DNA of 64,000 bases, taken from the NCBI GenBank assembly GCA_046290465.1, contig JBKAGP010000001.1, positions 1 to 64,000 of the forward strand, written 5' to 3'. A program made the position numbers and the translations under genes. The DNA is from Planctomycetota bacterium. GTDB taxonomy: Bacteria; Planctomycetota; UBA1135; UBA2386. A model generated the notes under the pieces. That model had not been told where the DNA came from. It made no database searches and worked only from the letters and a program-made list of their open reading frames with translations. Each line of letters starts with the position of its first letter. The stretch's first letter is position 1. Of this stretch, positions 17,743 to 35,429 are shown piece after piece.

Positions 17743-18420
17743 CTAGCGGCAAAGGCGGTGGAGTTGGGCGAACGGGGTGGGGTCGTCTTCGGCGGGCCAG
17801 TCGAGGGTGGCGATGCCGTTGCCGTTCGCGTTCTGCGGCAGGGCGAGTACCGCGACGACGGCGCGCACACAGGCGTCGCGGCCGGCCGCGGGTTCGCGCA
17901 GCGCGTCGGCGACGCCGGCGACGACGAACGGGACGTCCTCTGCGGCCAGCATGCGCAACGCCTCGCGCAGGCTCTCGCCGGGCGCGCTCTCGAGCACCGA
18001 CATGCTGATCGTCGGGCCGCGCAGCTTGTAGCGCAGCGCGACCTCGCCGAGGCTCGTGCTGGTCAGCGAATACGGGAAGATGCCGGCGTGCACGACCTCG
18101 TCCTCCAGCGACAGCTGGAAGTCGACGTCGGTCGTCAGCGAGCCGACGTCGGTCTCGACGCAGATCGCGGCCTCGTTGCGCTGCGGCTCGGTCAGCACCT
18201 GGTCGAGTCCAGCCGCTTCGCACGCCAGCACCAGGGCGCGCGCCGGCAGGTCGATGCGGCGGAACGTCGCGTCGGACTTGCCGAACACGGCCTTCAGCGT
18301 GCGGCCGGTGCCGGGCGGGGCGGTCTCGAGCTCCTGCCAGGTGGCGGTGACGCCGCGCGTGCCGGAGATGCCGTGCTCGTCGACGACGCCGCAGGCCAGG
18401 ACGGTGGCGGTGAGGCTCAT
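17743..18420 (-). CDS. Short ketosynthase-like / chain-length-factor protein
   Basis: FRRIDLPAR, GSLTTD, IFPYSLTSTSLGEVALRYKLRGP (KS N-terminal fold, no catalytic Cys); coupled to the upstream KS. Confidence 0.8.
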   Translation of the reverse strand: MSLTATVLACGVVDEHGISGTRGVTATWQELETAPPGTGRTLKAVFGKSDATFRRIDLPARALVLACEAAGLDQVLTEPQRNEAAICVETDVGSLTTDVDFQLSLEDEVVHAGIFPYSLTSTSLGEVALRYKLRGPTISMSVLESAPGESLREALRMLAAEDVPFVVAGVADALREPAAGRDACVRAVVAVLALPQNANGNGIATLDWPAEDDPTPFAQLHRLCR

Positions 18421-19547
18421 GCCGAGAACACCGCTGCGCCCTGGACGCCTCCGAAGCCGCTGGCGACCTTCAGGGCGGTGTTGGCGCGCGCCAGGCGACG
18501 CGGCCGTTCGCACACGTCGAGCCGCGGGTCGCAGTCGCTCTCGCGCAGACCGTGGTTGCCCGGCACTTCCGAACGTTCGAGCGCGGCGATCGCGAGCAAA
18601 GACTCGAGCACGCCGGCGGCGCCGAGCGTGTGCCCGGTCTGGCCCTTGCTGCCGAACGCCGGCGGCGTGCGGTCGGCGACGTCGGCCCAGGCGTTGGCGA
18701 GGCCGATCGCCTCGCTCTTGTCGTTGGCGCGCGTGCCGGTGGCGTGCAGGTGCAGCAGGTCGACGTCGTCCAGGCGCAGGCCGGCGTGCGCGACGGCGCG
18801 GCGCGCGGCGAGCCCGACGCCCAGGCCCTCGTAGTCGGGACCGGTCACGTGGCAGGCGTCGTTGGCGCCGCTGTAGCCGCGCACGCGCACGCCGACCGAC
18901 TCGGCTTCGGCGGCCGTCAGCACGATCGCGCCGGCGCCGTCGCCGAGCGACACGCCGCGGCGCTCGCGGTCGAACGGTCGGCAGGCCGCCGGGTCGAGGG
19001 CGCCCATGCCGCCGAAGCCGCGCAGGATGAACTCGTTGACCGCGTCGGCCGCGACCACCAGCAGGCGGTCGCACTCGCCGCTGGCGATGCGTCGCGCGGC
19101 CGAGGCGATGCCGATCACGCCCGATGCGCACGCGCACGACAGCGCCGTCGGCTGCAGGCCGAACCCGAACGCCTCGCTGACCATCACGCCGAGCCGGATC
19201 GGCGAGCCGAGGCCGGCGCCGCGGCCGCAGATGCCGGACATGTCGCCCTTGGTGGTGGCGAGCACGACGCCCATGCTCCGCACGTCGGGCCGGCCGGCCT
19301 CGTCGAGCGCCTCCTCGGCGGCCAGCATCGCCGCCCGCAGCGGCAGGTCGCGTTCGGGCAGTTCGAGCTCGTCGAGCGTGCCCGCCGGGAACTCGCCGCA
19401 GACCGTCGTCTCGGCGCGGAACGGCGCTGTGCGACGACGTTCGCGCAGCGCGGTCTCCCCGGCGAACACCGCGTCGCACAGCGCCGCGACGCCCCGGCCG
19501 AAGCCGGTGACCGCGCCGCGGCCGGCGACGAACACCGGTCGCCTCAC
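18417..19547 (-). CDS. Beta-ketoacyl-ACP synthase (KS-B)
   Basis: SCACASG (Cys), CRPFDRERRG, HLHATGT, GHTLGAAG, SGFGG; GTG start overlaps the upstream stop. Confidence 0.92.
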   Translation of the reverse strand: MRRPVFVAGRGAVTGFGRGVAALCDAVFAGETALRERRRTAPFRAETTVCGEFPAGTLDELELPERDLPLRAAMLAAEEALDEAGRPDVRSMGVVLATTKGDMSGICGRGAGLGSPIRLGVMVSEAFGFGLQPTALSCACASGVIGIASAARRIASGECDRLLVVAADAVNEFILRGFGGMGALDPAACRPFDRERRGVSLGDGAGAIVLTAAEAESVGVRVRGYSGANDACHVTGPDYEGLGVGLAARRAVAHAGLRLDDVDLLHLHATGTRANDKSEAIGLANAWADVADRTPPAFGSKGQTGHTLGAAGVLESLLAIAALERSEVPGNHGLRESDCDPRLDVCERPRRLARANTALKVASGFGGVQGAAVFSA

Positions 19548-20248
19548 TTCGGGGCCTCCGTCGGCAGGCGGGTCTCGCTGCTGGTGTCGATCGTCAGGCG
19601 GTAGCCGAACCACGCGTTGTCGAGCACGGCGTGCGGCGGCAGGGCCCACTCCGAATCGGCCCACTCCGGATCGGCCCATTGCGGATCGGCGTCGCCGGAC
19701 CGGGTCCATCGGTACGAGATCCGGATGGTGCCGTCGCGGGCGCCGTCGAGCCGCGTGAACGTGCGTTCGCGCAGCCTGCCGTCGGCCCAGCGCTCGGTGA
19801 TGCGTTCGCCGTCGCGGTCGGCGCTGCGCTCACCGTCCTGCATGTCGTCGTCGAACCACGGGAAGAACGCGCGCTGCACGTCGAGCAGGATGAATCGCGG
19901 CGGGATCACCATCTGCTCGGGGATGTTGTTGACGACGTCGATGCCGTCGGGGCCCTGCTCGATCGAGAACCCGATCGAGCCCATCGGCGACAGCCCGATC
20001 ACGGTCAGCGTGTCGCCGCGTCGCTGCACGGCGGCGTCGAAGCCGCGCTCCTGCGGTGGCTGGCCGGGCGCCTGCCACGACGCGGTCACGCGCTGCTGCC
20101 AGACGGCCTCGACCGGCAGCGTCGCCGGCGCCTGCAGCGTGCCCGGGTAGTCGGCATCGCGCAGGACGACGGGTCGGGGGGTTCGGCACGCGGCGAACGC
20201 CAGGCAGACGCCGAGCGTCGTCAGCAACGGGATGGGGGAGCGGGTCAC
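19544..20248 (-). CDS. DUF3261-like lipoprotein
   Basis: Lipobox AFAAC; LTVIGLSPMG, PPRFILLDVQ, NAWFGYRLTI; this family is typical of aryl polyene clusters. Confidence 0.75.
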   Translation of the reverse strand: MTRSPIPLLTTLGVCLAFAACRTPRPVVLRDADYPGTLQAPATLPVEAVWQQRVTASWQAPGQPPQERGFDAAVQRRGDTLTVIGLSPMGSIGFSIEQGPDGIDVVNNIPEQMVIPPRFILLDVQRAFFPWFDDDMQDGERSADRDGERITERWADGRLRERTFTRLDGARDGTIRISYRWTRSGDADPQWADPEWADSEWALPPHAVLDNAWFGYRLTIDTSSETRLPTEAPK

Positions 20249-22626
20249 GGGTGCGTTCCAGGCGCGGTGCGCGAGGCGAGCGCGCAGACGGTCGGGGCCA
20301 GGACGAGGCACAGTAGCACGCCGACCGCGGATGTCAGCCCGATGTGGAACAACGGCGGCTGCGACGACAGCGACAGCAGGCCGAAGCCGAGCATCGTCGA
20401 CGCGCCGGCGAGCGTCACCGCCAGCAGCGTCGCGTCGCGCTGCACTTCGTCGTCGCGGTGTTCGGCCAAGAACACGCCGTAGTCGACCCCCATGCTGACG
20501 ACCATCAGCAGCGCGACCAGCGACAGCATGTTGAGTTCGAGGCCGAGCAGCGTCAGCACGGCCGCGGTGCCGGCCGCGCCGAGCACCGCCGGCACGTACG
20601 CGATCAGCGTCGGACGGAGCGCGCGGTGGCGCACCGCGACCAGCAGCAGCACCGCGCCGAGCCCGAGCATCCACAGCTGCAGCAGCCGCTGTCGGTAGGC
20701 GCCGTAGGCGCCGCCCAGCGTGCCGGCGATGTCGATCAGCCGGCCGCCGTCGACGTCGGCGAGAGCCGCGCGCAACGCCGTCTCGTCGTGCAGGTCGTGC
20801 AGGAACGTCACGAAGCCGACGCCGCCGCTCCACGTGAACCGGAACGGCTCGACCATCTGCGCGAGCGGGCCGCCGGCCAGGTCGCGGTAGCGCAGCGGTG
20901 CGGGCGGCTCCTGGGCGACGAAGGCCTGCCAGCGCGCGAACGCGGCCGGCACGAATTGGTGCGCCCGCAGCGCCCGCTCGAGCCGCGGCCACAGCGTCTC
21001 GTCGCCGCGCACGGCCGCGTCGACCGCGCGCTGGGTCGCGGCCGACGGCAGCATCGGCGCCAGGCTGCGGAAGCCGGACAGCGCGCCGTCGGCGACCAGC
21101 GGCGCGAGCGCTCTCTCGACCCGTTCGTTGGCCTGCAGCGCGGCCTCCTCGTCGGCGCCCGTGGCGACCACCAGGCGGCGCTGTTCGAAGCGCACCACGC
21201 GGGCGCGCACCGCCTCGTCCCGGGCCTGGATCTCCGGGTCGATCTTGTTCAGGTCGGCGAGGCCGTCGTTCCAGCGCAGCTGCGGCAGGCCGACGGCGAC
21301 GGCGAGCAGCACCAGTACGATCGGAGCGGCGAGCGCGATCCGGCTGCGGTCCGGGGCGAAGAACGTGCGGCGCAGCAGCGCGGCGAGGCCGCTGGCGATC
21401 GCGGTCGGCCGGGCGCGCCGGCTGGCCAGCGCCGGCAGGAACAACCAGGTCGACAGCGCCGCTGCGGCGATGCCGAAGGTCGCGAACACCGCCAGCTGCC
21501 GCAGACCGGGAAAGCTCGACGCGACCAGCGCCAGGAACCCGGTGATCGTCGTCAGCGCGCCGAGCCCGAGCCCCGGCCAGACCCGTCGCAGCGACGCACG
21601 TGGCGAACTGCCGTCACCGGCGTGCAGGTGGTGGCAGTGGAAGTGCACGCCGTAGTCGACGCTGACGCCGATCAAGGCGGCGCCGAACGCCAGCGTCAGG
21701 CCGTGCACCGAGTCGAACCACAACAGGCACGCGGTGGTGCCGCACAGAAAGCCCATGCCGAGGATCGGCAGCACCAGCAGCAGCAGACGCAGCGATCGGA
21801 ACAACAGCAGGAACAGCGTCGTCAGGCCGATCGCCGAGCCGATGCTGACGCGCTGGATGTCGGAACGGATGCCCGCCTCGGCAGCCAGCGCGAACAGGTG
21901 GGTGCCGCTCTGGTGCAGCGTCAGCCCGCCGCCGGAGCGCTGCTCGGCGCGCGCGAACGCCGCGTCGATGCCGGCCAGCAGCGGCCGCATCGCGGTCGCG
22001 TTGGTCATCGGGATCGTCGTCGTCAGGAACAGCACCGCGCCGTCCTCGGCCTCGGTGACGAACCGACCGTCGACCAGCTTCAGGCCCTCGCCGCGGCCGG
22101 CCATCAGCCGTTCGAACAGCTGCGGCAGCAGCCGCAGCGGGTCCTCGGGCACGACCTTGACCAGCAGCGTCGACATCGGCGTCTGCAGCTTGCGCTTGAG
22201 CTCGGCGATCGACGCATCGAGCGCATCGTCGGTCAGCTGTCTTTGGGCGGCGTCGGCGTCGGGCGCGGCGAACGCGACGCGGTGCCGCCGGTAGGTCTGC
22301 CACATCGCGTCCTCGACCGCCTCGCCGGAGCCGGTCACCAGCCGCTGCAGGTGCTCGGCGACGACCGGCTCGGCGCGCAGTTCCTGCTCGAACCGGCGGC
22401 TCGCCGCGGCCGCCGCGCTGGCGTCCTCGGCGTCGACCAGCAGCACCATCGTGCGGCTCAGTTCGCCGGCCGCGAGTTCGCGCGCCAGGTGCACGTCGTC
22501 GTGGTCCGCGCCCCGAGGCAGGAAGTGGGTGATGTCGGTCGCGACGTCGATGCGCAGCGCCACGACGGTGGCGAGCAACGCCAGCAGTGCGGTGCCGACC
22601 AGCAGGAAGCGTCGCTCGCGGCTCAC
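20245..22626 (-). CDS. MMPL/RND-family exporter (ApeN-like)
   Basis: TDITHFLP, LIGVSVDYGVH and MGVDYGVF repeats; two TM bundles. Confidence 0.9.
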   Translation of the reverse strand: MSRERRFLLVGTALLALLATVVALRIDVATDITHFLPRGADHDDVHLARELAAGELSRTMVLLVDAEDASAAAAASRRFEQELRAEPVVAEHLQRLVTGSGEAVEDAMWQTYRRHRVAFAAPDADAAQRQLTDDALDASIAELKRKLQTPMSTLLVKVVPEDPLRLLPQLFERLMAGRGEGLKLVDGRFVTEAEDGAVLFLTTTIPMTNATAMRPLLAGIDAAFARAEQRSGGGLTLHQSGTHLFALAAEAGIRSDIQRVSIGSAIGLTTLFLLLFRSLRLLLLVLPILGMGFLCGTTACLLWFDSVHGLTLAFGAALIGVSVDYGVHFHCHHLHAGDGSSPRASLRRVWPGLGLGALTTITGFLALVASSFPGLRQLAVFATFGIAAAALSTWLFLPALASRRARPTAIASGLAALLRRTFFAPDRSRIALAAPIVLVLLAVAVGLPQLRWNDGLADLNKIDPEIQARDEAVRARVVRFEQRRLVVATGADEEAALQANERVERALAPLVADGALSGFRSLAPMLPSAATQRAVDAAVRGDETLWPRLERALRAHQFVPAAFARWQAFVAQEPPAPLRYRDLAGGPLAQMVEPFRFTWSGGVGFVTFLHDLHDETALRAALADVDGGRLIDIAGTLGGAYGAYRQRLLQLWMLGLGAVLLLVAVRHRALRPTLIAYVPAVLGAAGTAAVLTLLGLELNMLSLVALLMVVSMGVDYGVFLAEHRDDEVQRDATLLAVTLAGASTMLGFGLLSLSSQPPLFHIGLTSAVGVLLCLVLAPTVCALASRTAPGTHP

Positions 22627-23468
22627 TTGGTCTTGGACGTGGCGGCCGGTCGGATGCCGAAGATCTCGCGCTTCTCCGCTGCGGTGAACGTGCGCTCGGG
22701 ATCGACCTCGTCGATCGTCGTCACGGTGCGGTCGCCGCTCGGCTCGAGCAGTTCGATACGGGTGACGGCCTCGCCGTCGCCGAACAGCGACAGCTGCGCG
22801 AGGATCTTGTCGAGCGGGGCTTTCTTCGGGACCAGCTCGAGGTGCCAGCGCGTCGCGTGCTCCGCGTCGAGCACGTAGCGGACCCGATAGTGCTGCTGCA
22901 GCGCCTTCTGGTCGCCCTGGAAGATGCGCATCAGCGAGGTCACGAACAGCCGCACCCGATCGCTCTGGCGCAGATCGATGACCTCGGTGCCGTTGGCGTC
23001 GGCCATGCGCAGCTCGTCCTCGGTGATCGTCAGCTTGCTCTTCTCGGGCTTCTCGACGCTGCGCACCAGGTGGCCCTTCTTCTGCTTGCCTTCGGCGAGG
23101 AAGTGCAGCTTGCCACGGCTCTGCAGCGGCACGGCCAGCAGGCTCAGGTGCTTCTTCTCGGTGTAGCTGGCGGACATGCCGCGCAGCTTGCCGAACATCG
23201 CGAACAGGGCCGCGCGGTCCTTGGGGCGCGCCGGTTCGTCGCCCTGCGGCTCGGCCGCCTTCTGGTCCTTCGCCGCCTTCTGGTCGTTCGCGTGCTCCTG
23301 GCCCTTCGCGGGATCTTGGCCCTTCGCGGGATCTTGGCCCGTGGCCTTCTCCTGGGTGCGCACCTGCGGCTTCTGCACCGTCGCGGCTGCGGCCAACAGC
23401 GACGACGTCGTCGTGCCGGACATCACGACCGCCAGCAGCGACAGCACCGAGGTCGCGGCTCTCGCCAT
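22623..23468 (-). CDS. LolA-like lipoprotein/lipid carrier (ApeM-like)
   Basis: Signal peptide; YTEKKHLSLLAVPLQSRG, WHLELVPK, IELLEPSGDRT; start uncertain (23522 is an alternative). Confidence 0.82.
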   Translation of the reverse strand: MARAATSVLSLLAVVMSGTTTSSLLAAAATVQKPQVRTQEKATGQDPAKGQDPAKGQEHANDQKAAKDQKAAEPQGDEPARPKDRAALFAMFGKLRGMSASYTEKKHLSLLAVPLQSRGKLHFLAEGKQKKGHLVRSVEKPEKSKLTITEDELRMADANGTEVIDLRQSDRVRLFVTSLMRIFQGDQKALQQHYRVRYVLDAEHATRWHLELVPKKAPLDKILAQLSLFGDGEAVTRIELLEPSGDRTVTTIDEVDPERTFTAAEKREIFGIRPAATSKTK

Positions 23469-23490
23469 CGTGGCAGTGGCCGACAGACCG

Positions 23491-23991
23491 TTACGAGACC
23501 GGCAGACGTTCGAGGATGCCATCGGGGGTGTTGGTGTGGAGGTTGCCCTGCACGTCGGTGGTCGCGAGCACGGTCACCGCGCGCGCGCTCCAGCGATCGG
23601 TGTCGAGGTTGTGCACGTCGTAGGCGACCTTGATCAGCGGCGAGGCCTGCAGGAACCAGGCGGTCACGGACAGGTGCTGATCGTAGAGGATCGGCGCCAT
23701 GTAGCGACAGCTGGCGTCGACGACGAACATCTTGCAGCCGAGCGCCATCATCGCCGGCACCGCCAGGTCGACGCTGCGGAACAGCTCCGTGCGCGCCTGC
23801 TCGAGCCATTCGAAGTAGCGGCCGTGCCAGACGACCGCCAGCGGATCGCACTGGTGCAGCCCGGCGCGGAAGCGCACCGTGACCGCGTGATCGGGGCGCT
23901 TGGGTCGGCCGCCGCTACTCGGTGGGCTGCTCGGTGCGCTCGCGCTCGCCTGCGGATCCGTCCCCGGAGGTGTCGTCTTGCCAGAAGTCAT
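23491..23991 (-). CDS. 4HBT-like acyl-CoA thioesterase (ApeK-like)
   Basis: CDPLAVVWHGRYFEWLEQAR hot-dog motif; start uncertain (77-nt overlap with the upstream gene). Confidence 0.87.
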   Translation of the reverse strand: MTSGKTTPPGTDPQASASAPSSPPSSGGRPKRPDHAVTVRFRAGLHQCDPLAVVWHGRYFEWLEQARTELFRSVDLAVPAMMALGCKMFVVDASCRYMAPILYDQHLSVTAWFLQASPLIKVAYDVHNLDTDRWSARAVTVLATTDVQGNLHTNTPDGILERLPVS

Positions 23992-24901
23992 AGAAGTTGA
24001 ACCAGTTGTCGGGCGCAGAACGCGCGTAGTGCTCGAGCCGGTCGGCGTAGCGCTGCACGACCTCCTGCAGCGCGGCTTCGCGCGTGCGACGCGGTAGATG
24101 CAGGCGGTCGGCGAACGGCTCGCACGACAGGTCGTAGCGGTTGGGCCGGCGATACAGGCCGAAGGTCAGGTAGACCGGGCACTTCATCAGCGACGCCAGC
24201 AGGAACGGGCCGGCCGGGAAGCGCGCCTGCTGGCCGAAGAACGTCGCCTCGACGGTGCGCTCGTTGAGTCCGGTGCGGTCGCCGAGCAGCGCGACGAAGT
24301 CGCCGGCCTCGATCCGGTCGTGCACGCGCGCCATCTGGCCGACTGGGTCGTCGCCGATGTGGATCACGGTCGCCGCGCGTTCGGGATCGAGCTTCTCGAG
24401 CAGCGCGTTGATCATGCGGGCGTTGGCGAAGTGGCCGAGGATGTTGATCCGGATGCGATCCTCTTCGCCGCCGCTGCGCATCGCCTCGAAGCTGCCGAGG
24501 TGGCCACCGAGCAGCACGGCGCCGCGGCCGGTCGCGAACTGCTCGGCCAGGAAGTGGTCGCCGGTGCGCGTGAACGTGAACGCGCGCGCCTTGCCGCTGA
24601 CCAGGAAGACGCGATCGAGCGTGACCTGCGCAAACGTGTGGATGTGGCGGAACGTCTGCCAGAAGGTCGGTTCGGCGCCGTGCACGCGACGCAGCCAGTC
24701 GCGCGATGCGGCCACCGCCTGCTTGTCGGTCAGCCGGTAGAACAGTGCGATCACGTACACCAGCGGCTTCATCAGCGTGCGCCCGATCAGCTGCGCCAGC
24801 CGGAACGTCGCGTGGATCAAGAACACCGTGCCGCGCTCGCCCTGGCTCAGCCAGGTGTCGCGTTCGTCCGCGTTCGCCGCCTCGACGGGCTGCGCGCTCA
24901 A
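23915..24901 (-). CDS. LpxL-like lipid acyltransferase
   Basis: HLGSFE, VALLGDR, FFGQQARFPAGP, PDNWFNFYDFW; TTG start overlaps the upstream stop. Confidence 0.9.
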   Translation of the reverse strand: MSAQPVEAANADERDTWLSQGERGTVFLIHATFRLAQLIGRTLMKPLVYVIALFYRLTDKQAVAASRDWLRRVHGAEPTFWQTFRHIHTFAQVTLDRVFLVSGKARAFTFTRTGDHFLAEQFATGRGAVLLGGHLGSFEAMRSGGEEDRIRINILGHFANARMINALLEKLDPERAATVIHIGDDPVGQMARVHDRIEAGDFVALLGDRTGLNERTVEATFFGQQARFPAGPFLLASLMKCPVYLTFGLYRRPNRYDLSCEPFADRLHLPRRTREAALQEVVQRYADRLEHYARSAPDNWFNFYDFWQDDTSGDGSAGERERTEQPTE

Positions 24902-25656
24902 CGGGCCACCTCCGCGCGGCGGCCGCGGCCGAACGGCCACAGCCGGCGGAACGTCCAGCGCATGCAGCCGAGCGTGCACAGCTTGCTGTGCATCCACGCG
25001 AAGCGCAGGTTGTCGCGCAGCGGGTGGAAGTGCGAGACGCCGCCTTCGTCGACGCTCAGGTAGCGCACCGCGACCGGCAGGTTGACGGTGGGGGCGCCGC
25101 GCCGGACCGCCTCGACGGCGACTTCGATGTCGAAGTCCATGCGGTCGCCGACGTGCTCGAGATCGGCGACGACCGCCAGCGGGTAGATGCGGAAGCCGAT
25201 CATCGCGTCGCGGATCTTGCCGCGTCCGCCGACTTCGACCGCGACCCAGAAGTCGGTCAGGCCGCGCGCGATCCGGCGCGAGCGCGGCGCGGTCGCGTCG
25301 TACTCGGGGTAGCCGAGGATCAGCGCGTCGGGGTTGCTGCGCGCCGCCTCGGCGAACGCCTCGATCCGGTCCAGGTCGTGCTGGCCGTCGGCGTCGATCT
25401 GGAACGCGTGGCTGTAGCCGAGCTCGCGCGCCTTGCGAAAGCCGTGCTTGCAGGCCGCACCCTTGCCGCCGTTGTCGGGGCGGTGCAGCACCGTCGCGAG
25501 ACCGTCGGCCGCGATCGCCTCACAGGCGGCGCGGCCATCGGGGCCGCTGCCGTCGTCGACGACGAGCACGTCGAGCCCGCGCGCGCGGATCCGTTCGACC
25601 ACACCGCGCACCGTGCGCGGGTTGTCGTAGGTCGGCACCAGCGCGACCAGCTTCAC
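24898..25656 (-). CDS. Glycosyltransferase family 2
   Basis: VPTYD, VVDDGS, NGGKGAA, QIDADGQHD, GFRIYPL, GGVSHF. Confidence 0.93.
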   Translation of the reverse strand: MKLVALVPTYDNPRTVRGVVERIRARGLDVLVVDDGSGPDGRAACEAIAADGLATVLHRPDNGGKGAACKHGFRKARELGYSHAFQIDADGQHDLDRIEAFAEAARSNPDALILGYPEYDATAPRSRRIARGLTDFWVAVEVGGRGKIRDAMIGFRIYPLAVVADLEHVGDRMDFDIEVAVEAVRRGAPTVNLPVAVRYLSVDEGGVSHFHPLRDNLRFAWMHSKLCTLGCMRWTFRRLWPFGRGRRAEVAR

Positions 25657-26930: not shown

Positions 26931-26934
26931 CCGT

Positions 26935-27543
26935 TCAGGCGGTCTCGTCGGGGGTCTTGCGCTTGCGCACGTCGGGGAAGCGCACGCGCCGCAGCAGCCA
27001 TTCGATCGCGAACAGGCTGCCGATCAACGCGTAGCACAAGAGGCCGTTGTAGAGCGCCCACCACTTCATGTCGGCGAAGATCGCGAGCAGGGCTGCGGTG
27101 GTGCCGTTGGCGACGAAGAAGGCGCACCAGATCCACGTCCACATCCGGCACCAGGCCTGCTTGTCGCGGTCGAGTTCCTTCTCCTGCAGGCGCGCGAACC
27201 GTTCGATCATCGGCATGCTGCCGGGACGCAGCGTGATGCCGAACGACAGCAGCAGCACGACGTTGGTGGCGACCGGCGTGGCGAGGATGTATTCGCTGCC
27301 GTCGAGCAGCGCGGCGACCACCAGGATCAGCAGGATCGTCGCCGGCACCGCGGCGAGGCCGCGCACGTTCTTGGGCGCGTTGCCCTTGCCGGCCCGGAAC
27401 AGCATCGCCGGCACCATCACGCACAGCAGCACGATGGCGACCTGGCGCGGCGAGCCCGACGACAGCCCGATCCAGACGAACGCCGGGTAGGCGACCAGCG
27501 CGATCGCCGCGAGCACGCGCACCAGGATGGCCCAGATCTTCAC
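26935..27543 (-). CDS. COG4648-like membrane protein (ApeG-like)
   Basis: PMIERFARL, WCAFFVANG, WALYNGLLCY, FAIEWLLR. Confidence 0.87.
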   Translation of the reverse strand: MKIWAILVRVLAAIALVAYPAFVWIGLSSGSPRQVAIVLLCVMVPAMLFRAGKGNAPKNVRGLAAVPATILLILVVAALLDGSEYILATPVATNVVLLLSFGITLRPGSMPMIERFARLQEKELDRDKQAWCRMWTWIWCAFFVANGTTAALLAIFADMKWWALYNGLLCYALIGSLFAIEWLLRRVRFPDVRKRKTPDETA

Positions 27544-27571: not shown

Positions 27572-27856
27572 TCAGGACTCGGACGAGGCCGCTTCGGCCT
27601 GCTTCTCCTGGATGAACTTCACCAGCGAACCGACCGAGTGATAGTACTCGCGATTGCGCTCGTCGTTCTCCTGGGTGCGCACGCCGAACTCCTTGTGGAA
27701 CGCGAGCGCCAGCTCGAGCGCGTCGATCGAGTCGAGGCCGAGGCCTTCGCCGAACAGCGGCGCGTCGGTCTCGATGCTCGCGGGTTCGACGTCCTCGAGG
27801 GCGAGCGTCTCGACGATGATCTCCTTGATGCGGGCGGCTAGCTGGTCTTCTGACAT
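27572..27856 (-). CDS. Acyl carrier protein (ApeE-like)
   Basis: PLFGEGLGLDSIDALEL phosphopantetheine motif; AAGGA RBS. Confidence 0.95.
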   Translation of the reverse strand: MSEDQLAARIKEIIVETLALEDVEPASIETDAPLFGEGLGLDSIDALELALAFHKEFGVRTQENDERNREYYHSVGSLVKFIQEKQAEAASSES

Positions 27857-28665
27857 TCGGTTTCCTTTGCGTCGGGATCGTACGAGCGCGACCCGGCAGC
27901 CGCAACCTTGCGGATCCACTCGCGGTAGCGCCGTTCGACCCGGCTGCGCAGCGCGCGGCTGCTGTCGGTGCCGTCGGGTTCGTCGACGGCCAGCACGTCG
28001 ATGCACATCCGCGGGGTCGGATGCGGCGGGCGGAACAGCGGCACCTGCTTGGACAGGTAGACCGGCTCGCACGTGATCGCGAGCGACACCAGCGGCACCC
28101 GGGCGCGGCAGGCGATCTCGAACGCGACGCGCCCGAACGGCATCAGCCCGCCCGGCGGCGAACGGGTGCCCTCGGGGAAGATCACCACCGGGATGCCCCA
28201 GGACAGCCGTTCGACGACGTCGTCGACGACCCGGCCGATCCGGATCGGGTCCGGCCCCGGGCCCTCGACGTGGCCGAGGCCGAGCATCAGCGGGCGGATC
28301 ATCGCGCGGCGGTAGACGCCGGGCTTCACGATCGAGATCGCGCCACCGAGCATCGCGGTGACCGCGGCGACGTCCATCACCGTCGGGTGGTTGGCGATCA
28401 CGACGCAGGCCCCCTGCGGCAGGTCGCCGGCGGTGCGGCGCCAGTCGAAGACCGTGATCCGCGTCCAGGTCAACCAGCGGTGCATGAACCGGTAGGCGCG
28501 CGAGGTCAGGAACTGCAGGCGGCGCGAGCGCTGCATCCGGTCCCGGCGCCATACGAAGCAGAGCAAAGCCAAAATGGCGTAGCCGAACGGCGCGAGGACC
28601 GTGTAGCCGCCGACCGTGATGACGACGTTCACGCGGCGGATCCAGTGCTTCAGGAGGTCGCTCAC
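27838..28665 (-). CDS. PlsC-family lysophospholipid acyltransferase (ApeD-like)
   Basis: NHPTVMD (HxxxxD), IFPEGTRS; start inferred. Confidence 0.9.
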   Translation of the reverse strand: MSDLLKHWIRRVNVVITVGGYTVLAPFGYAILALLCFVWRRDRMQRSRRLQFLTSRAYRFMHRWLTWTRITVFDWRRTAGDLPQGACVVIANHPTVMDVAAVTAMLGGAISIVKPGVYRRAMIRPLMLGLGHVEGPGPDPIRIGRVVDDVVERLSWGIPVVIFPEGTRSPPGGLMPFGRVAFEIACRARVPLVSLAITCEPVYLSKQVPLFRPPHPTPRMCIDVLAVDEPDGTDSSRALRSRVERRYREWIRKVAAAGSRSYDPDAKETECQKTS

Positions 28666-28747
28666 GCCGGGTTGGATCGCCTTCTGGCTGTCGCTAGCAT
28701 TTCGTTCCGGGCAGGCATTGTCCGCGCCCACCAATCGCACGCACCCT

Positions 28748-30505
28748 ATGTCCCAACAGACCGTGTCGTCCACCCAGGACGTCGTCATTTGTGGTGGCGG
28801 GTTCGCCGGCTTGCTGCTGGCCCGCCAACTTCGACAGGAGATGCCGGAGCTGAGCGTAGCCGTCATCGACAAGATGGCGCGGCCGCTGCCGGACGCCGCC
28901 CACAAGGTGGGCGAGTCGTCGGTCGAGCTCGGCTGCCAGTACCTCGAAGGGCTCGGGCTGAAGGACTACCTGCTCGAGCAGCACCTGGTGAAGCTCGGGC
29001 TGCGGTTCTTCCCGGGCGGCGGCAAGCTGCCGCTGCACGAGCGGCTCGAGATCGGCCCGTGCTCGGAGCCGGTGGTGCGCTCCTACCAGATGGACCGCGG
29101 CAAGATCGAGAACGACCTGCGCGAGATGAACGTCGCCGACGGCGTGACGATGATCGAGGGCGCCAAGGTCGAGCACGTCGAGCTGGCGCCGAGCGGCAGC
29201 GACGAGCTGCACCGGGTGACGTTCGCCGGGCAGGTCGATGGCGAGCTGCAGGCGCGCTGGGTGGTCGACGCGACCGGCCGCCAGGCGCTGCTGCGCAAGC
29301 GCATGAAGACCACCCGCGGCTCGCCGCACCAGGCGCACGCCAGCTGGTTTCGGGTCAAGGGCAAGGTCGACCTCGAGGACATGGTGCCCGCGAGCGAGAC
29401 CGAATGGCACGAACGGCCGTGCAACACCGAGCGCTGGCGCTCGACCAACCACTTCATGGGCCACGGCTACTGGGCCTGGCTGATCCCGCTGTCGACCGGC
29501 TACACCAGCGTCGGCCTGGTCATCCACGACGACCCGCACGGCACCGGCCCGATCCAGGGGCTCGCGGCGACGATGGACTTCCTGCGCGAGCACGAACCGC
29601 ACCTGGCAGCACTGTGTGAGCAGTACGAGGCCGTCGACTTCTTGTGCCTGAAGGGCTTCAGCCACAACGTCGCGCGCTGCTGGTCGCCCGATCGCTGGGC
29701 GCTGGTCGGCGAGGCCGGCGCGTTCGTCGATCCGCTCTACAGCCCCGGCACCGACTTCATCGCGACGGCCAACCACTTCACGGTCGAGATGATCCGCGCC
29801 GAGCGCGCCGGCGAGGACCTGCAGGCGAAGTCACAGCACCTCAACCTGCTCTACCGTTCGTTGTTCAACGGCTGCGCCGACCTCTACAAGGAGGCGCAGG
29901 CGGTCTACGGGCACCCGTCGGCGATGGCGACCAAGGTGTTCTGGGACAACATGCTCTACTGGTCGTTCACCTGCCACCTCGTGCACCAGGGCATCTACAA
30001 GCTGTCGGCGCAGGACTACCAGCCCTACGGCGAGATCGGCACGCGCTTCCTCGAGCTCGGCAACTTCATGCAGCGCTTCCTCAAGGAGTGGGCGGAACTG
30101 GTGCCCGAGGAGCAGCGGCCGGAGTTCATCGGCGCGCCGCACTTCCCGTCGATCCTGGTCGACGCGCACGTGTCGACCGGCGAGCGCTACACGCTCGAGG
30201 AGACGCTCGAACTGATGCGCACGCGCATCGAGCAGGGCGAGCAGGCGGTCGGCGAACTGGTGCTGCGCACCGTGCAGCAGATCGGGCCCGAACACGCCAA
30301 GGTGCTGCTCGAGAAGAGCGGCTGGTACGACATCGGCGTCACCATCACCGCGCATCGCCTCGAGGGCGAGGCGAAGGTCGGCAGGGCGCGACGCGACCAC
30401 CTGACCAAGATGGCGCGCGACGTCGAGCGCACGCTCGGCCGGCAGCCGCGCCACCCCGAGGCCGACAAGGCGCGCGAGCTGCTCGCGGCGTCGGCGACCG
30501 TCTGA
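28748..30505 (+). CDS. Flavin-dependent halogenase family protein (Hal-1)
   Basis: GGGFAG, HKVGESSVE, HLVKLGLRFF, DATGR, YWAWLIPL (WxWxIP), GEAGAFVDPLYSPG. Confidence 0.85.
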   Translation: MSQQTVSSTQDVVICGGGFAGLLLARQLRQEMPELSVAVIDKMARPLPDAAHKVGESSVELGCQYLEGLGLKDYLLEQHLVKLGLRFFPGGGKLPLHERLEIGPCSEPVVRSYQMDRGKIENDLREMNVADGVTMIEGAKVEHVELAPSGSDELHRVTFAGQVDGELQARWVVDATGRQALLRKRMKTTRGSPHQAHASWFRVKGKVDLEDMVPASETEWHERPCNTERWRSTNHFMGHGYWAWLIPLSTGYTSVGLVIHDDPHGTGPIQGLAATMDFLREHEPHLAALCEQYEAVDFLCLKGFSHNVARCWSPDRWALVGEAGAFVDPLYSPGTDFIATANHFTVEMIRAERAGEDLQAKSQHLNLLYRSLFNGCADLYKEAQAVYGHPSAMATKVFWDNMLYWSFTCHLVHQGIYKLSAQDYQPYGEIGTRFLELGNFMQRFLKEWAELVPEEQRPEFIGAPHFPSILVDAHVSTGERYTLEETLELMRTRIEQGEQAVGELVLRTVQQIGPEHAKVLLEKSGWYDIGVTITAHRLEGEAKVGRARRDHLTKMARDVERTLGRQPRHPEADKARELLAASATV

Positions 30506-30508
30506 TCG

Positions 30509-31507
30509 GTGGCCGCGTTCGAGCCTGCTGACGACGCCGACTGGTTGCTCTACGAGCTCGGCGGCAAGCACCGGGCGCAGGTCCTGTCGACACTCGCCGC
30601 GGTGCGCGTTCCGGACCTGCTGCAGCAGCACGGCCCGACCACGCTCGGCGACCTCGCCGAGCGCGCCGGCTGCGACGGCGAGGACCTCGAGAGCCTGCTG
30701 CGCGCTGCGGCCGGCCTGGGCTGCCTGCGCGAGGGACCGCCCGGCACGTTCGCGCTGACTGCGCGCGGTGAGCAGCTGTGCGGTGACCGGCTCGGCGCGT
30801 TCGCGTCGTTCCTCGGGTCGCGCTCGCAGTGGGATCCGTGGTCGCGGCTGCGCGACGGCATGCGCGATGAGGCGCGGCGGCCGCCGTTGCAGCACGCGCT
30901 CGGCGCGTCGCTCTACGAGTTCCTGGCCAACACGCCGGCGGCCGCAGCCGAATACGACGCCGCGATCGACGCGTTCACGCAGCACGAGGCGCGCCACCTG
31001 GAGGGCCGTCTCGACCTTACCGGTGCGCGACTGCTGGTCGACGTCGGTGGCGGCCGCGGCACGCTGTTGCGTTCGCTGCTGGCGCAGGCGCCGGAAGCGC
31101 GCGGCGTCCTCTACGACCTGCCGCACGTCGTCGCCGCGGCGCGCCCGGACCTGCCGCCCCAGATCGACGCCGTCGCCGGCGACTTCCAGCACTCGGTCCC
31201 GCCAGGCGCCGACGTCTACCTGATCAAGCACGTGCTGCACAACTGGCCGGACGAGGTCGCCACGCGCATCCTGCAGAACTGCCGCGAGGCCCGCGCCGAA
31301 GGCGGCCGCATCGTCGTCATCGACGCCGTGCTCGCCCCCGACAACCGCCCCGACCTCGCACGCATGCTGGACCTCGAGATGCGCGTGCTCTGCGGCGGCC
31401 GCGAACGCCGCAAGCCCGAACTCCGCCGCCTGCTCCACCAGGCCGGCCTGCAGATCCAACGAGCCGAGGAACTCACCACCTCCAGCTGGCTCTTCGTCTG
31501 CCACTAA
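30509..31507 (+). CDS. SAM-dependent O-methyltransferase (dimerisation domain plus Methyltransf_2)
   Basis: VDVGGGRG, YDLPHV, AGDF, KHVLHNW, GGRER. Confidence 0.92.
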   Translation: MAAFEPADDADWLLYELGGKHRAQVLSTLAAVRVPDLLQQHGPTTLGDLAERAGCDGEDLESLLRAAAGLGCLREGPPGTFALTARGEQLCGDRLGAFASFLGSRSQWDPWSRLRDGMRDEARRPPLQHALGASLYEFLANTPAAAAEYDAAIDAFTQHEARHLEGRLDLTGARLLVDVGGGRGTLLRSLLAQAPEARGVLYDLPHVVAAARPDLPPQIDAVAGDFQHSVPPGADVYLIKHVLHNWPDEVATRILQNCREARAEGGRIVVIDAVLAPDNRPDLARMLDLEMRVLCGGRERRKPELRRLLHQAGLQIQRAEELTTSSWLFVCH

Positions 31508-31520
31508 CCCCACCCAAACG

Positions 31521-31738: not shown

Positions 31739-31741
31739 GGG

Positions 31742-32188
31742 TTATTCGGGGGGCTTTTCGCCGTGCACGAGGGTCATGGTGCAGGTGGCGACGGGGGTGC
31801 CGGTGGCGGTCGTGATGGTGCCGTCGTAGTGGGAGATGGCGTCGGTGCCGCGGACCTGGTCGGCGGTGACGTGGTAGGTTTCGCCTAGGTGCAGGTGGGG
31901 CTCGGTGATCTGCATCTGGCGGCAGGCGATGACCATGCCGACGCGCACGTTGCCGCCGCCGACGTAGGCCTCCATGCCGAGGCATGCGGCGACGCACTGC
32001 GCCATGTATTCGAGCGACATGACCGTGTCGATCCTGCCGTCGCGCAGCAACGGATTGTCGGCGCGGATGGTCAGCTCGCCGCGGGCGTGCTCCTGCTGCC
32101 ACGAGGTCAGGCGCTCGAGCGCGAGCACCGGCTTCTGGTGGGGGACGAGTTCGGTGACGGCGGGTAGGGGCTGCATGGTCGCCAGCAA
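31742..32188 (-). CDS. Hot-dog fold dehydratase partner (ApeP-like)
   Basis: ELVPHQKPVLAL, LEYMAQCVAA, VGMVIACR; alternative ATG at 32176. Confidence 0.85.
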   Translation of the reverse strand: MLATMQPLPAVTELVPHQKPVLALERLTSWQQEHARGELTIRADNPLLRDGRIDTVMSLEYMAQCVAACLGMEAYVGGGNVRVGMVIACRQMQITEPHLHLGETYHVTADQVRGTDAISHYDGTITTATGTPVATCTMTLVHGEKPPE

Positions 32189-32191
32189 CGT

Positions 32192-32968
32192 TCAGGCCTC
32201 GAGCCTGGCGAGGTAGCCGCGGCCCTTGCCGCGATCGAGCCGCAGCGCGCCGGTCGCGCCGCGCTGGATCGCGTCGATCAGGTCGACGATGCCGACCTGC
32301 GGATTGTGCGAGAACCCCTCGGCGACGTCCGAGGCGTCGACGTCGGCGCTGCCGTCGGTCGCGACCGTCAGGTGCGCGTGCGCGCCAGCCGCACCCGCGC
32401 GCGTCAGCACGACCGCGCCCGCGAGCATGTCCCAGTGCGGGGCGTGTTCGAGCAAGCTGCGCGGCGACGCCTCGTCGGCGCAGACGCAGCAGACCGCGTC
32501 GTGGCCGGTCGCGAGCAGGCCGATGCCCTCGAGCAGCGCCGCCGCCGGCGTGTCGTAGTCGGCGGCGATCGAGGTCGTGTAGCCCTTGTTCTTCATCGAG
32601 ATCGACAGCAGGCCGCTCGCCGCGTTGTGCACGCTGACGGTGAACACCGCCGGGGACATCGGCTCCTGCTCGCGCCACATCTGGTCGAGCAGGCCGATCA
32701 TCGCCGAGGCCTCGCCGATCGACGAACCGACGATCACCGGCGTCGTCTGCGGATCGACCTCGGCCTGCGCCAGCGCCTCGGCGACGGCGTCGCCGATCGC
32801 GCGGCCCATCTGGCTGGCGCGGCGCCGGTTGACCCGGTTGTAGGCCTGGCCGGTCGGCTTGGTCGGCTCGTCGTCGGGCAGCGGCGTGCGCTCGGCCCAG
32901 GCCGCGGCGTTGGGGAAGCGCGGCATCCACAGGCCGACGCCGGTGACGGCGACTCGGAGGGCGCTCAC
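32192..32968 (-). CDS. Ketosynthase chain-length factor (ApeC-like)
   Basis: RRRAS, SSIGE, MSPAVFTVSVHNAASG, AALLEG, ADE. Confidence 0.88.
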   Translation of the reverse strand: MSALRVAVTGVGLWMPRFPNAAAWAERTPLPDDEPTKPTGQAYNRVNRRRASQMGRAIGDAVAEALAQAEVDPQTTPVIVGSSIGEASAMIGLLDQMWREQEPMSPAVFTVSVHNAASGLLSISMKNKGYTTSIAADYDTPAAALLEGIGLLATGHDAVCCVCADEASPRSLLEHAPHWDMLAGAVVLTRAGAAGAHAHLTVATDGSADVDASDVAEGFSHNPQVGIVDLIDAIQRGATGALRLDRGKGRGYLARLEA

Positions 32969-34170
32969 GGCCTGGCCACCAGCAGCGAGACGTTGTTGCC
33001 GCCGAACGCGAACGAGTTGCTCAGCACGCGCTGATACGTGCCGGTCGTCTTCTGCGTCGGGATGTTCACTTCGATCTGGGGGTCGATGTCGCCGTCGCCG
33101 ATCGCGGGCGGGATCCAGCCCTCCTCGATCGCGCACGCCGAGAACGCCAACTCGAGCGCGGCGGCCGCGCCCAGCGTGTGGCCGGTGTAGGCCTTGGTCG
33201 AGACGGTCGGCACGTCCTTGCCGAGCACGCACTGGATCGCGTTGGCCTCGGCGGTGTCGTTGAGCCGCGTGCCGGTGCCGTGCGCGTTGACGTGGTCGAC
33301 GTCCTCGGGCCTGCGGCCGGCGCGCTGCAGCGCCTCCCGCATCGCGGCCTGCGCGCCGAGCCCCTCGGGGTGCGGCGCCGAGATGTGGTAGGCGTCCGAA
33401 GTCTCGCCGATGCCCTCGATCAGCACGCGCGCGTCGCCTTCGCGTTCGACCAGCGCGAACGCGCCGCCCTCGCCGATGCTGATGCCGTTGCGGTTCTCGC
33501 GGAACGGCCGGCACGGGGCGCTGTCGAGCGCCTGCAGCGAGTGGAACCCGGTCAGCGTCATCGTGCACAGCGTGTCGAGGCCGCCGACGATCGCCGCGTC
33601 GATCGCGCCGGCGGCGATCAGCCGCTGCGCGGTGGCGAACGTCTTGCCCGACGACGTGCAGGCGGTCGACGCCATCCACGACGGCCCCTCGACGCCGGCC
33701 AGCTTGCGCACCACGGACAGCACCGCGCCGAACGTGTGCTGGCGCTGGAAGTCGTAGTCGCGCGGAAAGCTGCCGCCGGCCACGAACTGCTTGTAGGCGA
33801 CCTCGGTGGTCTCGGCGCCGGCCGTCGACGTGCCGAGCAGCACGGCGATGCGCTCGGGACGCCACTTCTCGCGGGCGCGGCGCAGCGGCTCGTCGAGTTC
33901 CTGCAGCAGCGCGTAGGCCATGCGCGCCAGCCGCGTCGACCACGGCTGCAGCTCCGCCGGCAGCTCCGGCAGCTCGTCGCGGACGGCGCCCGCGGCGGTC
34001 TCGAAGTCGAGTCGGATCGGGTGGTCGCCGAGGCCGGAACGTCCGGCCGCGAGCGCCTCGAGGTGCTGCTGGCGGCCCGTTCCGAGCGCGCTGAGCATGC
34101 TGTAGCCGGTCACCAACAGCGGAGCGATCGGCTCCAGCGGTCGGGCTTGCGGCGAAGGGGCGTCGGTCAC
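32965..34170 (-). CDS. Beta-ketoacyl-ACP synthase (KS-A, ApeO-like)
   Basis: LGTSTAG, STACTSS, DTLCTMTLTGF, NAHGTGT, GHTLGAA, SNSFAFGG. Confidence 0.94.
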   Translation of the reverse strand: MTDAPSPQARPLEPIAPLLVTGYSMLSALGTGRQQHLEALAAGRSGLGDHPIRLDFETAAGAVRDELPELPAELQPWSTRLARMAYALLQELDEPLRRAREKWRPERIAVLLGTSTAGAETTEVAYKQFVAGGSFPRDYDFQRQHTFGAVLSVVRKLAGVEGPSWMASTACTSSGKTFATAQRLIAAGAIDAAIVGGLDTLCTMTLTGFHSLQALDSAPCRPFRENRNGISIGEGGAFALVEREGDARVLIEGIGETSDAYHISAPHPEGLGAQAAMREALQRAGRRPEDVDHVNAHGTGTRLNDTAEANAIQCVLGKDVPTVSTKAYTGHTLGAAAALELAFSACAIEEGWIPPAIGDGDIDPQIEVNIPTQKTTGTYQRVLSNSFAFGGNNVSLLVARP

Positions 34171-34184
34171 GATGGGGGCAGCTC

Positions 34185-35429
34185 TCAGTTCTTGGTCGGC
34201 GCGGTGCGGCGCCGGCGGGCGGACAGCAGCATGTCCTGGAAGGCGTTGTCGTGCCGCCAGACATCGCCGGCGAGCACGGACATGACCCCGCGACGCAGGT
34301 CGTCGCCGAGGTCGCCGCCGAGGAAGTAGCTCTCGGCGAAGCGGGTGTTGTAGAAGCGTTCGACCAGGCCCGCGAACGTCGCGTAGGCGCGCTGCATCGA
34401 TCGGTGGTAGTCGTCCAGCAGCGTCGGGTCGGCCTCGCGGCCGTCGCGCAGCGCCGGCGCGACCAGGTCGACCAGGTCGGCGGCGCCGCGCAGCGCGAGC
34501 GTCACGCCGGAGCTGAACACCGGGTCGAGGAAGCAGGCGGCGTCGCCGGCGGCGGCGAAGCGCGCGCCGGACGGGCGCGTGTTGGCGTAGCTGTAGTTGC
34601 CGACCACCTGCGTCTGCAGGCGCGTGGCGCCCTCGGTCAGCGCGGTGCACAGCGGCCCACTGAGCAGGCCGTCGTCGAGGTCGGGCTGCGCGATCTTGCC
34701 CTTGGCGACGATGCCGACGCTGAGGCGCCGCCCCGGCAGCGGGATGATCCAGCCCCAGCCCTCGGGCCGCAGCATGATGCGGATGTCGAAGTCGGGCCCG
34801 AGCAGTTCGACGTTGGCGTCCCGGTAATGCGTGTAGACCGCGCAGTGGCCGAAGCGCGTGTAGGGCTCGACCGCGTCGTGGCGGCGCGCGAGCAGGCGCG
34901 ACTGGCCCGACGAGTCGATCAGGTAGCGGCCCGTGTAGCGCGCGGTGCGGGTCTCGACCCACGCGGCGTGGTCGTCGGCGCCGAGGTCGGTGACGGTCTC
35001 ACCGTGGCGCACGTCGGCGCCGAGTTCGACGGCGCGGTCGCGCAGCTGCATGTCGAAGCGCGCGCGGTCGACGTGCCAGGCGTGCTCGGCGGCGCCCGGC
35101 AGCGCGTGCCGGAACTCGAACGCCTGCTGCCGGTCGGTGTGCTCGCAAACGAACCGCGCACCGCGCTTGTAGACGTAGGTCTCGTCGTTGGGCGTGACAC
35201 CCAGCCGTTCGAGCACCGGCATCAGGCCCGGCAGCAGCGACTCGCCGATCCGCTCACGCGGGAACTGGTCCTTCTCGAGCACGATCACCGAGAAGCCGTG
35301 CTGCGCCAGCAGCGCGGCGGCGGTGGTGCCGCCGGGCCCGGCGCCCGTCACCAGGACGTCGGCGTCGACGCGGTCCAGCCCGTCGCTGGCCGCAGCTGTC
35401 CGGGGCCCGGCTTGGTTCGAGTCGTTCAT
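34185..35429 (-). CDS. FAD-dependent halogenase/oxidoreductase family protein (Hal-2)
   Basis: GAGPGG, FPRERIGESLLP, YKRGARF, GWGWIIPL, GDAACFLDPVFSSG. Confidence 0.85.
   Translation of the reverse strand: MNDSNQAGPRTAAASDGLDRVDADVLVTGAGPGGTTAAALLAQHGFSVIVLEKDQFPRERIGESLLPGLMPVLERLGVTPNDETYVYKRGARFVCEHTDRQQAFEFRHALPGAAEHAWHVDRARFDMQLRDRAVELGADVRHGETVTDLGADDHAAWVETRTARYTGRYLIDSSGQSRLLARRHDAVEPYTRFGHCAVYTHYRDANVELLGPDFDIRIMLRPEGWGWIIPLPGRRLSVGIVAKGKIAQPDLDDGLLSGPLCTALTEGATRLQTQVVGNYSYANTRPSGARFAAAGDAACFLDPVFSSGVTLALRGAADLVDLVAPALRDGREADPTLLDDYHRSMQRAYATFAGLVERFYNTRFAESYFLGGDLGDDLRRGVMSVLAGDVWRHDNAFQDMLLSARRRRTAPTKN

Follow-up and report, generated by a model that had tools for sequence, protein, structure and literature searches.

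A planctomycete gene cluster that is likely a divergent relative of the aryl-polyene lipid clusters, with a decayed or absent starter ligase

The window analysed here comprises positions 1 to 64,000 of contig JBKAGP010000001.1 (assembly GCA_046290465.1), the start of a single-contig 6.59-Mb planctomycete genome, which is 94% complete. It contains a cluster of 18 genes (17743..35429) that, judged by sequence, is likely a divergent relative of the clusters for aryl-polyene (APE) lipids; all 18 were recovered when open reading frames were listed, a codon model trained on the genome was applied and families were scanned. Encoded are two pairs of a ketosynthase (KS) and a chain-length factor (CLF), denoted KS1-CLF1 and KS2-CLF2, one acyl carrier protein (ACP), two dehydratase (DH) units, enzymes of lipid assembly and export, a methyltransferase and two flavoproteins, flav1 and flav2. 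The aryl starter ligase appears decayed or absent, and the start of the chain is the main puzzle of the pathway. In the host genus the cluster has left its ketoreductase (KR), which stands at the ancestral site of the cluster. Both features had been missed in an earlier sequence-only reading of the window.

The 18 proteins of the Escherichia coli CFT073 ape cluster were compared with the predicted proteome of the host (4854 genes), using a cut-off of 1e-3. For eleven of them (ApeC, D, E, G, I, J, K, L, M, O and P) the best match lies inside the cluster, and the ApeN counterpart was identified through Pfam DUF3261. The best host match of ApeR is the housekeeping FabF, that of ApeH a ligase in another host cluster. 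An equal protein map was obtained with a Pseudoalteromonas ape cluster, which also gave a match to flav1. In comparison with E. coli CFT073 apeA-R and with the APE lipid (APEL) cluster of Xenorhabdus doucetiae, counterparts are found here to ApeC, D, E, G, I, J, K, L, M, N, O, P and Q, and the run ACP-ApeG-H/I-J-K-L-M-N has equal order. ApeJ, single in those clusters, is split here into two genes (GT2 and LpxL-type); ApeA, ApeB, ApeF and ApeR are missing, ApeH is decayed or absent, and the KR is remote in the host genus. KS2-CLF2, the two flavoproteins and a methyltransferase of another family are additions. Of the canonical ape core, as listed in the legend to Fig. 1 of bioRxiv 2020.12.19.423268, the cluster has an ApeO-type KS with an ApeC-type CLF, the ApeI and ApeP dehydratases, ApeQ (outside the cluster) and the transport and anchoring set ApeD, G, J, L, M and N; it lacks an ApeR-type second KS, the second of the two ACPs (ApeE is present, ApeF not) and the ApeH ligase. 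Having no ApeR, ApeF or ApeH, it stands outside the canonical ape core, as well as outside the xanthomonadin and flexirubin sets, yet it would work like them. More canonical ape clusters, with ApeR, are also present in the phylum (four loci).

In a tree of 30 sequences, KS1 joins ApeO with 99/99 support, and KS2 forms a long clade of its own. In tests on 15 sequences, a clade of KS1 with FabF was rejected (approximately unbiased (AU) p=0.0001), and so was a clade of KS2 with ApeR (AU p=0.0066). The catalytic Cys-His-His is kept in both KSs and missing from both CLFs. The two best PDB matches of KS1 (6QSP and 7F28) are APE KS-CLF complexes, the former of which we take to be Xenorhabdus ApeO/C. 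The latter is an Acinetobacter entry, in agreement with the residue numbering in PMC8358021. Counterparts of cavity residues named in that paper are kept in KS1 (A166, C167, F205, H257 and F387) and in CLF1 (F85 and V89, whose placement in the CLF is our own). The kinship with ape, xanthomonadin and flexirubin clusters put forward in the earlier reading is borne out by the ApeO placement and by the matches of the Ape proteins.

As in the cluster under study, one ACP, a KS with a half-size CLF and two dehydratase units are found in the xanthomonadin cluster (Xcc3998-4015) and in the Azoarcus arc clusters. The former also has, by annotation, two halogenase-like genes, Xcc4001 and Xcc4013/XanB1. 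The planctomycete cluster differs from both in having no XanB2 chorismatase, no intact AMP-ligase and a second KS-CLF pair. With the flexirubin clusters (Chitinophaga flxA-Y, Flavobacterium) it shares several KS-type genes, LolA, a glycosyltransferase and an exporter; neither a tyrosine ammonia-lyase or coumarate ligase nor a KS III resembling DarB was found here. In the host, PF08541 matched only FabH and a type III polyketide synthase (PKS)-like gene, and DarA was not searched for. Judged from motifs, KS2-CLF2 may be kin to the flexirubin KS-CLF pairs. No characterised aryl-polyene pathway in Planctomycetota was found in the literature, consulted mostly as titles and abstract openings and with few subscription papers, in keeping with what the sequence-only reading had stated. 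The accessible text of PMC9902471 reports predicted clusters, and no chemistry, for planctomycete metagenome-assembled genomes.

A complex of KS2 with CLF2 is predicted: it scored 0.94, against 0.00 for the best control, with contacts agreeing at no less than 95% and a partner pLDDT (predicted local distance difference test) of at least 89. The mark set for this score was reached by 116 of 157 solved pairs and by 2 of 215 mismatched ones; KS-CLF complexes are among the solved structures, and the result may reflect likeness to those. No match to CLF2 was found on plasmids. In two related loci, an ACP and a GT2 gene directly precede KS2-CLF2. KS2-CLF2 also occurs in another type of planctomycete cluster (L027, L136 and L137), together with a C45-family gene, a DH and a thioesterase (TE). 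An ApeF-like ACP is present in L136 and L137, and an additional KS-CLF pair with a polysaccharide deacetylase in L027 and L136.

The genes are listed in Table 1. They are arranged in three units on two strands: flav1-KS1-CLF1-DH1 (-), flav2-methyltransferase (+) and PlsC-ACP-ApeG-like-ligase/DH-GT2-LpxL-TE-LolA-MMPL-DUF3261-KS2-CLF2 (-). The plus-strand pair diverges from PlsC across a gap of 82 nt and converges on DH1 across one of 234 nt. Neighbouring genes overlap by 4 nt at 7 of the 17 junctions, and all 15 same-strand junctions are overlapping or at most 28 nt apart. The cluster had been described as 18 contiguous, mostly translationally coupled genes; all 18 are real, and they do not form one operon. 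The inventory itself agrees with Pfam and NCBIfam matches for both KSs, two CLF-like proteins, ACP, thioesterase, PlsC, LpxL-type acyltransferase, GT2, LolA-like, MMPL and DUF3261 proteins, the methyltransferase and two Trp_halogenase-family flavoproteins. The COG4648 gene and both hot-dog units, which gave no family match above cut-off, were assigned by BLAST to E. coli ApeG (33%), ApeP (27%) and ApeI (32%). No promoter-like sites were found in the cluster, and terminator-like sites are at chance level. The gap between methyltransferase and DH1 (~31520-31740) is bounded by an inverted repeat of ~21 nt, with short tandem repeats inside, and is possibly a two-way terminator or a small repeat element. 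Recent horizontal import was ruled out by the native composition of the cluster: its G+C content at third codon positions (GC3, 0.90-0.97) and its codon scores agree with the genome median (0.95).

Table 1. Genes of the cluster, with their positions in the window and the basis of each assignment
Gene product	Position	Strand	Basis
flav1, 414-aa flavin halogenase/reductase-like, usual ape-accessory type	34185..35429	-	PF04820; GxGxxG, K88, WGWIIP, FLDPVFSSG
KS1, ApeO-type elongating ketosynthase, Cys-His-His	32965..34170	-	PRK09185 above cut-off; 6QSP 6e-71, 7F28_B 5e-67
CLF1, ApeC-type chain-length factor	32192..32968	-	PF13723; top PDB 6QSP_B, 7F28_A
DH1, ApeP-type dehydratase subunit	31742..32188	-	27% to ApeP; PF22817 E=0.0014, below cut-off
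S-adenosylmethionine (SAM) methyltransferase (Methyltransf_2), dispensable	30509..31507	+	family match; variable presence in relatives
flav2, 585-aa flavin-dependent halogenase-like, best halogenase candidate	28748..30505	+	motifs, fold, profile matches
PlsC-type acyltransferase (ApeD-like)	27838..28665	-	PF01553; 25% to ApeD
ACP, ApeE (starter) type	27572..27856	-	PRK09184 above cut-off; 49% to ApeE; LED, GEG motifs
ApeG-like (COG4648) membrane protein	26935..27543	-	33%, 2e-28 to ApeG
Decayed ApeH-ApeI fusion, 425 aa: adenylation-fold remnant and ApeI-type dehydratase	25653..26930	-	Atlas neighbours, template modelling (TM) score 0.69; no P-loop
GT2 glycosyltransferase (ApeJ N-half)	24898..25656	-	PF00535; 39% to ApeJ
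LpxL-type acyltransferase (ApeJ C-half)	23915..24901	-	PF03279; 34% to ApeJ
Hot-dog thioesterase (ApeK-like), start uncertain, possibly 23877	23491..23991	-	PF13279; 26% to ApeK
LolA-like carrier (ApeL-like)	22623..23468	-	PF19574; 29% to ApeL
MMPL/RND exporter (ApeM-like)	20245..22626	-	PF03176; 26%, 6e-42 to ApeM
DUF3261 lipoprotein (ApeN-like)	19544..20248	-	PF11659
KS2, second ketosynthase, Cys-His-His, own long-branch clade, not ApeR	18417..19547	-	family match, motifs, tree
CLF2, Cys-less half-KS, predicted KS2 partner	17743..18420	-	PF00109 N-terminal only; complex prediction

KS1 orthologues of at least 80% identity were found in 12 of 14 genomes of the same genus; in the rest of the family, 3 of 10 genomes have one at 70%, and at 60% or more there is none in 16 genomes from the other families of the order. 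A survey of 400 genomes of the phylum, in which only four candidates were scored per genome, gave a KS1 match at 1e-62 in 17 of them and one of at least 62% identity in eight, spread over three families. KS2 is present in all eight. Outside the family, flav2 was found at 50-60% in 7/7 genomes with a close KS1, versus 0/8 other genomes queried. Altogether, of 22 genomes in which a KS1 orthologue was found, 20 also have one of flav2, and in both misses the contig ends before the site. Gene order is essentially the same in four of the related loci (a fifth has KS2-CLF2 relocated) and is kept across the three families at 40-70% protein identity; within the genus the ACP is 86-97% identical. A co-loss of PlsC and GT2, suggested by some loci, was discarded, orthologues being found elsewhere in 5/5 genomes searched. 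The relatives are not independent, being kin, and conservation shows an inherited, selected unit, no more. A decaying relic, or a duplicate of the housekeeping fatty-acid synthase with no special product, might be suspected from the decayed ligase domain, the detached KR and the patchy methyltransferase. We hold this to be most improbable: all frames are open and the catalytic motifs intact across the cluster, the order has been conserved as described, the host has a complete separate plsX-fabH-fabG-acp-fabF locus, and KS1 does not group with FabF.

No KR gene lies within the cluster. The best host match of ApeQ (48%) is a KR at C1:3473256-3473990 (C1 being the host genome contig), 3.4 Mb away. 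Its orthologue (63-69%) directly precedes flav1 in 10/10 loci of this cluster type from other genera in which the site is visible. The two genes upstream of the lone KR of the host precede the cluster in three loci (L024-L026), and downstream neighbours of this KR are found next to the KS2-CLF2 end in another three (L099, L102 and L109). Since the flanks of the lone KR are those of the cluster ends elsewhere, the cluster has moved away from the KR. In the genus relatives the KR is kept in 14/14 genomes, at 77-90%. In Ralstonia wenshanensis (L119:14186-16155), a FabG2 gene and a flav1-type gene form a pair alone within a flagellar gene region; this pairing is the same as that of KR and flavoprotein in the ancestral planctomycete cluster.

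The proposed pathway starts from what is directly observed, namely the identities of the genes and their intact active-site motifs, the conservation of their order and the history of the KR; degrees of probability given for it and for its rivals are our own odds. We put it at slightly better than even that the cluster and the remote KR build a polyene on the ACP, probably halogenate it, attach it to a sugar-phospholipid anchor and export it to the outer membrane. That the product is a polyene envelope lipid is considered highly probable, and an aromatic head group is favoured with distinctly less confidence. If roles are carried over from the homologous Xenorhabdus/E. coli pathway, chain extension would fall to KS1-CLF1, reduction to the remote KR and dehydration to the pair of ApeI- and ApeP-type enzymes; the glycolipid would be put together by PlsC, GT2 and the LpxL-type acyltransferase; and the MMPL, LolA-like, DUF3261 and ApeG-like proteins would export it. 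More tentatively, the head group might be a phenol that either KS2-CLF2 or a ligase from elsewhere in the genome loads; KS2-CLF2, in the place of ApeR, might prime the chain or make a second conjugated acyl chain; flav2 might halogenate an ACP-bound intermediate with Br or Cl, flav1 might have a XanB1/ArcA-like role, and methylation might be optional. Going by the structure and model of APEL in bioRxiv 2020.12.19.423268, the product is likely a glycerophospho-sugar lipid, bearing either one conjugated chain or two, that is exported to the outer membrane; it probably protects against light or oxidants. Of the membrane-bound, halogenated and O-methylated polyene (glyco)lipid of the earlier reading, the polyene glycolipid bound for the envelope is retained as the likeliest product, and the two modifications are weakened.

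Several results weigh against this pathway, some concerning the start of the chain and some, reported further below, its halogenation. A clade of KS2 with FabF was not rejected (AU p=0.069, 15 sequences). ApeA, ApeB and ApeF found no match in the host proteome at 1e-3, where there is also no ApeR orthologue. In the 94%-complete host genome, neither chorismate lyase (UbiC; PF04345) nor an FkbO/Hyg5-type chorismatase (PF21168, which we take as a proxy for XanB2) was found. The sole ammonia-lyase (PF00221) adjoins urocanase and was for this reason assigned to histidine catabolism and dismissed as a source of aromatic starter; the flexirubin pair of tyrosine ammonia-lyase and coumarate-CoA ligase was not found in the host, with the reservation that the substrate of an ammonia-lyase is not provable from sequence. 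In characterised pathways ApeH loads hydroxybenzoate onto ApeE (accessible text of PMC8253772 and PMC12624758). At the ApeH position the host has a 425-aa gene whose nearest Atlas clusters are AMP-binding+ApeI fusions of 557-571 aa; unlike E. coli ApeH it has no P-loop motif, and it is outside the 12 PF00501 matches of the host. Its ApeI-type part keeps the His motif, with a Pfam match below cut-off; both announced dehydratase units exist, one of them as the C-terminal part of a decayed ligase-dehydratase fusion. Among 12 translated loci of relatives, seven have similar remnants of varied length and five, all those from one family (f68), the dehydratase only; an intact starter ligase was found in none of these loci, nor in that of the host.

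A non-aromatic polyene lipid would fit this decay or loss of the ligase across three families: the ligase would have been dropped as KS2-CLF2 starts from acetyl or acyl units, and flav2 would halogenate a chain carbon. The lack of any aromatic starter source among those sought, the constant company of KS2 with close KS1 in the phylum sample, the plasmid relative of flav2 described below and the dispensable methyltransferase point the same way. Such a product is nevertheless judged unlikely, since the ApeO/ApeC cavity residues are retained, most methyltransferase matches act on aromatic rings, the 12 other AMP-binding matches of the host could load a starter, and the ACP keeps the LED and GEG motifs of starter ACPs (accessible text of PMC12624758). 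A bolder view, to which we give a similarly small chance, is that this planctomycete branch gave up ATP-dependent starter loading, KS2-CLF2 priming the ACP and flav2 halogenating the polyene chain itself.

For the aromatic starter of the proposed pathway, a candidate stand-in ligase is encoded at C1:1712273-1713613 (23% to ApeH) and could serve as loader in the host genus. As a general loader it was rejected: in 5/5 genomes of families f68 and f30 only generic matches (best 6e-28, 23-37%) and no orthologue were obtained. Searches with E. coli ApeH are weak, as they missed even the best candidate of the host itself. The ligase gene lies within a second type II cluster (C1:1709326-1717951), which also encodes a lipoprotein, an MMPL protein, an ACP, a KS, a full-length CLF and a flav2 paralogue (37%); the ligase is intact, KR and DH are absent, and the paralogue is found in 14/14 genus relatives. 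This second cluster may cross-feed the main one. At a further locus (C1:6254302-6260390), the type III PKS-like gene is accompanied by genes for a membrane protein, a methyltransferase and a flavoprotein; this locus could supply a partner of alkylresorcinol type.

Both flavoproteins have the halogenase fold, and in both the GxGxxG and WxWxIP motifs and the FxDPxxSxG loop are present, together with a lysine in the position known from halogenases; these motifs have catalytic roles in this class of enzymes. The best PDB matches of flav1 are FasV (8ZOP, 2e-49) and a flavoprotein of Cytophaga hutchinsonii (3NIX, 4e-39), and it is 33% identical to a flavoprotein within the Pseudoalteromonas ape cluster. 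It belongs to the ordinary short type; flav2 represents a longer family, in which K82, WxWxIP and FxDPxxSPG are invariant in 49 homologues, the lysine aligning with that of GFPKKYG in ChlB4. The model of flav2 has a pLDDT of 89.7, and its best 15 fold matches are all halogenases, headed by CtcP, MalA' and PltM; in profile searches the carrier-dependent halogenases PltA, ChlB4 and Mpy16 matched best. All six share with flav2 the fold, the FAD motif, WxWxIP and the lysine position, and differ from it by an extra helical C-terminal region in flav2. Among cluster genes flav2 is one of the most conserved (91-94% in close relatives). Of its two nearest annotated plasmid relatives, one (40%) lies beside type I PKS genes. 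A supposed likeness of the Janthinobacterium locus to the enacyloxin cluster found no confirmation. No orthologue of Xcc4001 came to light: a Variovorax KS stands alone, and no Xanthomonas was among the matches listed in the paralogue search.

These motifs and folds make a halogenated product somewhat more probable than an unhalogenated one. Against it, the identity of flav2 to solved enzymes, the six just named included, is no more than 13-22%, and no PF01613 flavin reductase was found in the host, whereas 13 of 14 control genomes have one; the host has one PF03358 FMN_red gene. In addition, arcuflavin, the Azoarcus pigment, contains no bromine although arcA carries a halogenase annotation; ArcA (46% identical) is a homologue of one of the two xanthomonadin halogenase-like genes, which appear as 'halogenase' (Xcc4001) and 'reductase/halogenase' (Xcc4013) in Table S4 of PMC3949708. 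The same lipid could thus be made without halogen, both flavoproteins being reductases or oxygenases, or inactive on the product in the manner of ArcA. That the flav1 type occurs in ordinary ape clusters, and also next to a lone FabG2, would agree with this, as would the NCBIfam matches, which are all below cut-off and include reductases and non-halogenating maturases. We nevertheless give it only a minor chance, in view of the separate long family of flav2 with its invariant motifs, its carrier-dependent best matches and its conservation, and since bromination has been tied to the presence of the halogenase gene in Xanthomonas versus Lysobacter (accessible text of PMC3691225). Two flavoproteins in one cluster are not new, as the Xanthomonas cluster has two. 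The host genome encodes a third halogenase-like flavoprotein with a LolA-like gene (C1:1936608-1941888), on the same strand as and after histidine ammonia-lyase and urocanase, and a fourth flavoprotein (C1:3627443-3628687).

The O-methylation claimed in the sequence-only reading is not secure. The best PDB match of the methyltransferase is DtpM, presumably an N-methyltransferase, followed by CalO6. Its site is visible in 17 loci, in four of which the gene is lacking or reduced to a stub, and 7 of 14 genus relatives have it. The enzyme is dispensable and could act on either O or N.

Aryl-polyene clusters are said to be more widespread among Gram-negative bacteria than any other biosynthetic family, and full products are known for few of them. 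As the general cluster type is common, the surprise is moderate. A branch that keeps a starter-type ACP and has lost the starter ligase in three families raises a testable question on pathway initiation, and flav2, to which no solved enzyme is closely related, is a conserved candidate for a halogenase. If real, a halogenated envelope lipid in alga- and coral-associated planctomycetes would add a marine organohalogen source and a lineage biomarker; should ligase-free priming and chain halogenation also hold, it would represent a new class of halogenated envelope lipids in marine uncultured bacteria.

The host is a planctomycete, as had been supposed. Its 16S rRNA (window 47076-48633) matches PLA886 with no mismatch and Pla46F with one, both of which we take to be planctomycete primers. 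Ten records with a flav2 69-94% identical are labelled Planctomycetota (4), 'bacterium' (4), Brocadiaceae (1) and Luminiphilus (1), and 8 of 9 CLF2 homologues with a taxon label in their name are from Planctomycetes/Planctomycetota. Metagenomes holding at least half of the DNA words, with the possible source left out, include marine, coral and aquaculture ones (7 rows, 6 studies), and halide would therefore be available; no RNA data sets are among the listed holders.

Beside the cluster, a PMT_2-family membrane glycosyltransferase gene (window 16340-17620, +) is convergent with CLF2. It adjoins the cluster in five other loci and is probably not core to it, as it is absent from four more (L092-L094 and L098). 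Upstream of the cluster, an ELWxxDGT repeat protein with 16 matched repeats is encoded at 37524-40586 (+). A 16S-tRNA-tRNA-23S-5S operon (47076-52290) accounts for the low-GC stretch of the window.

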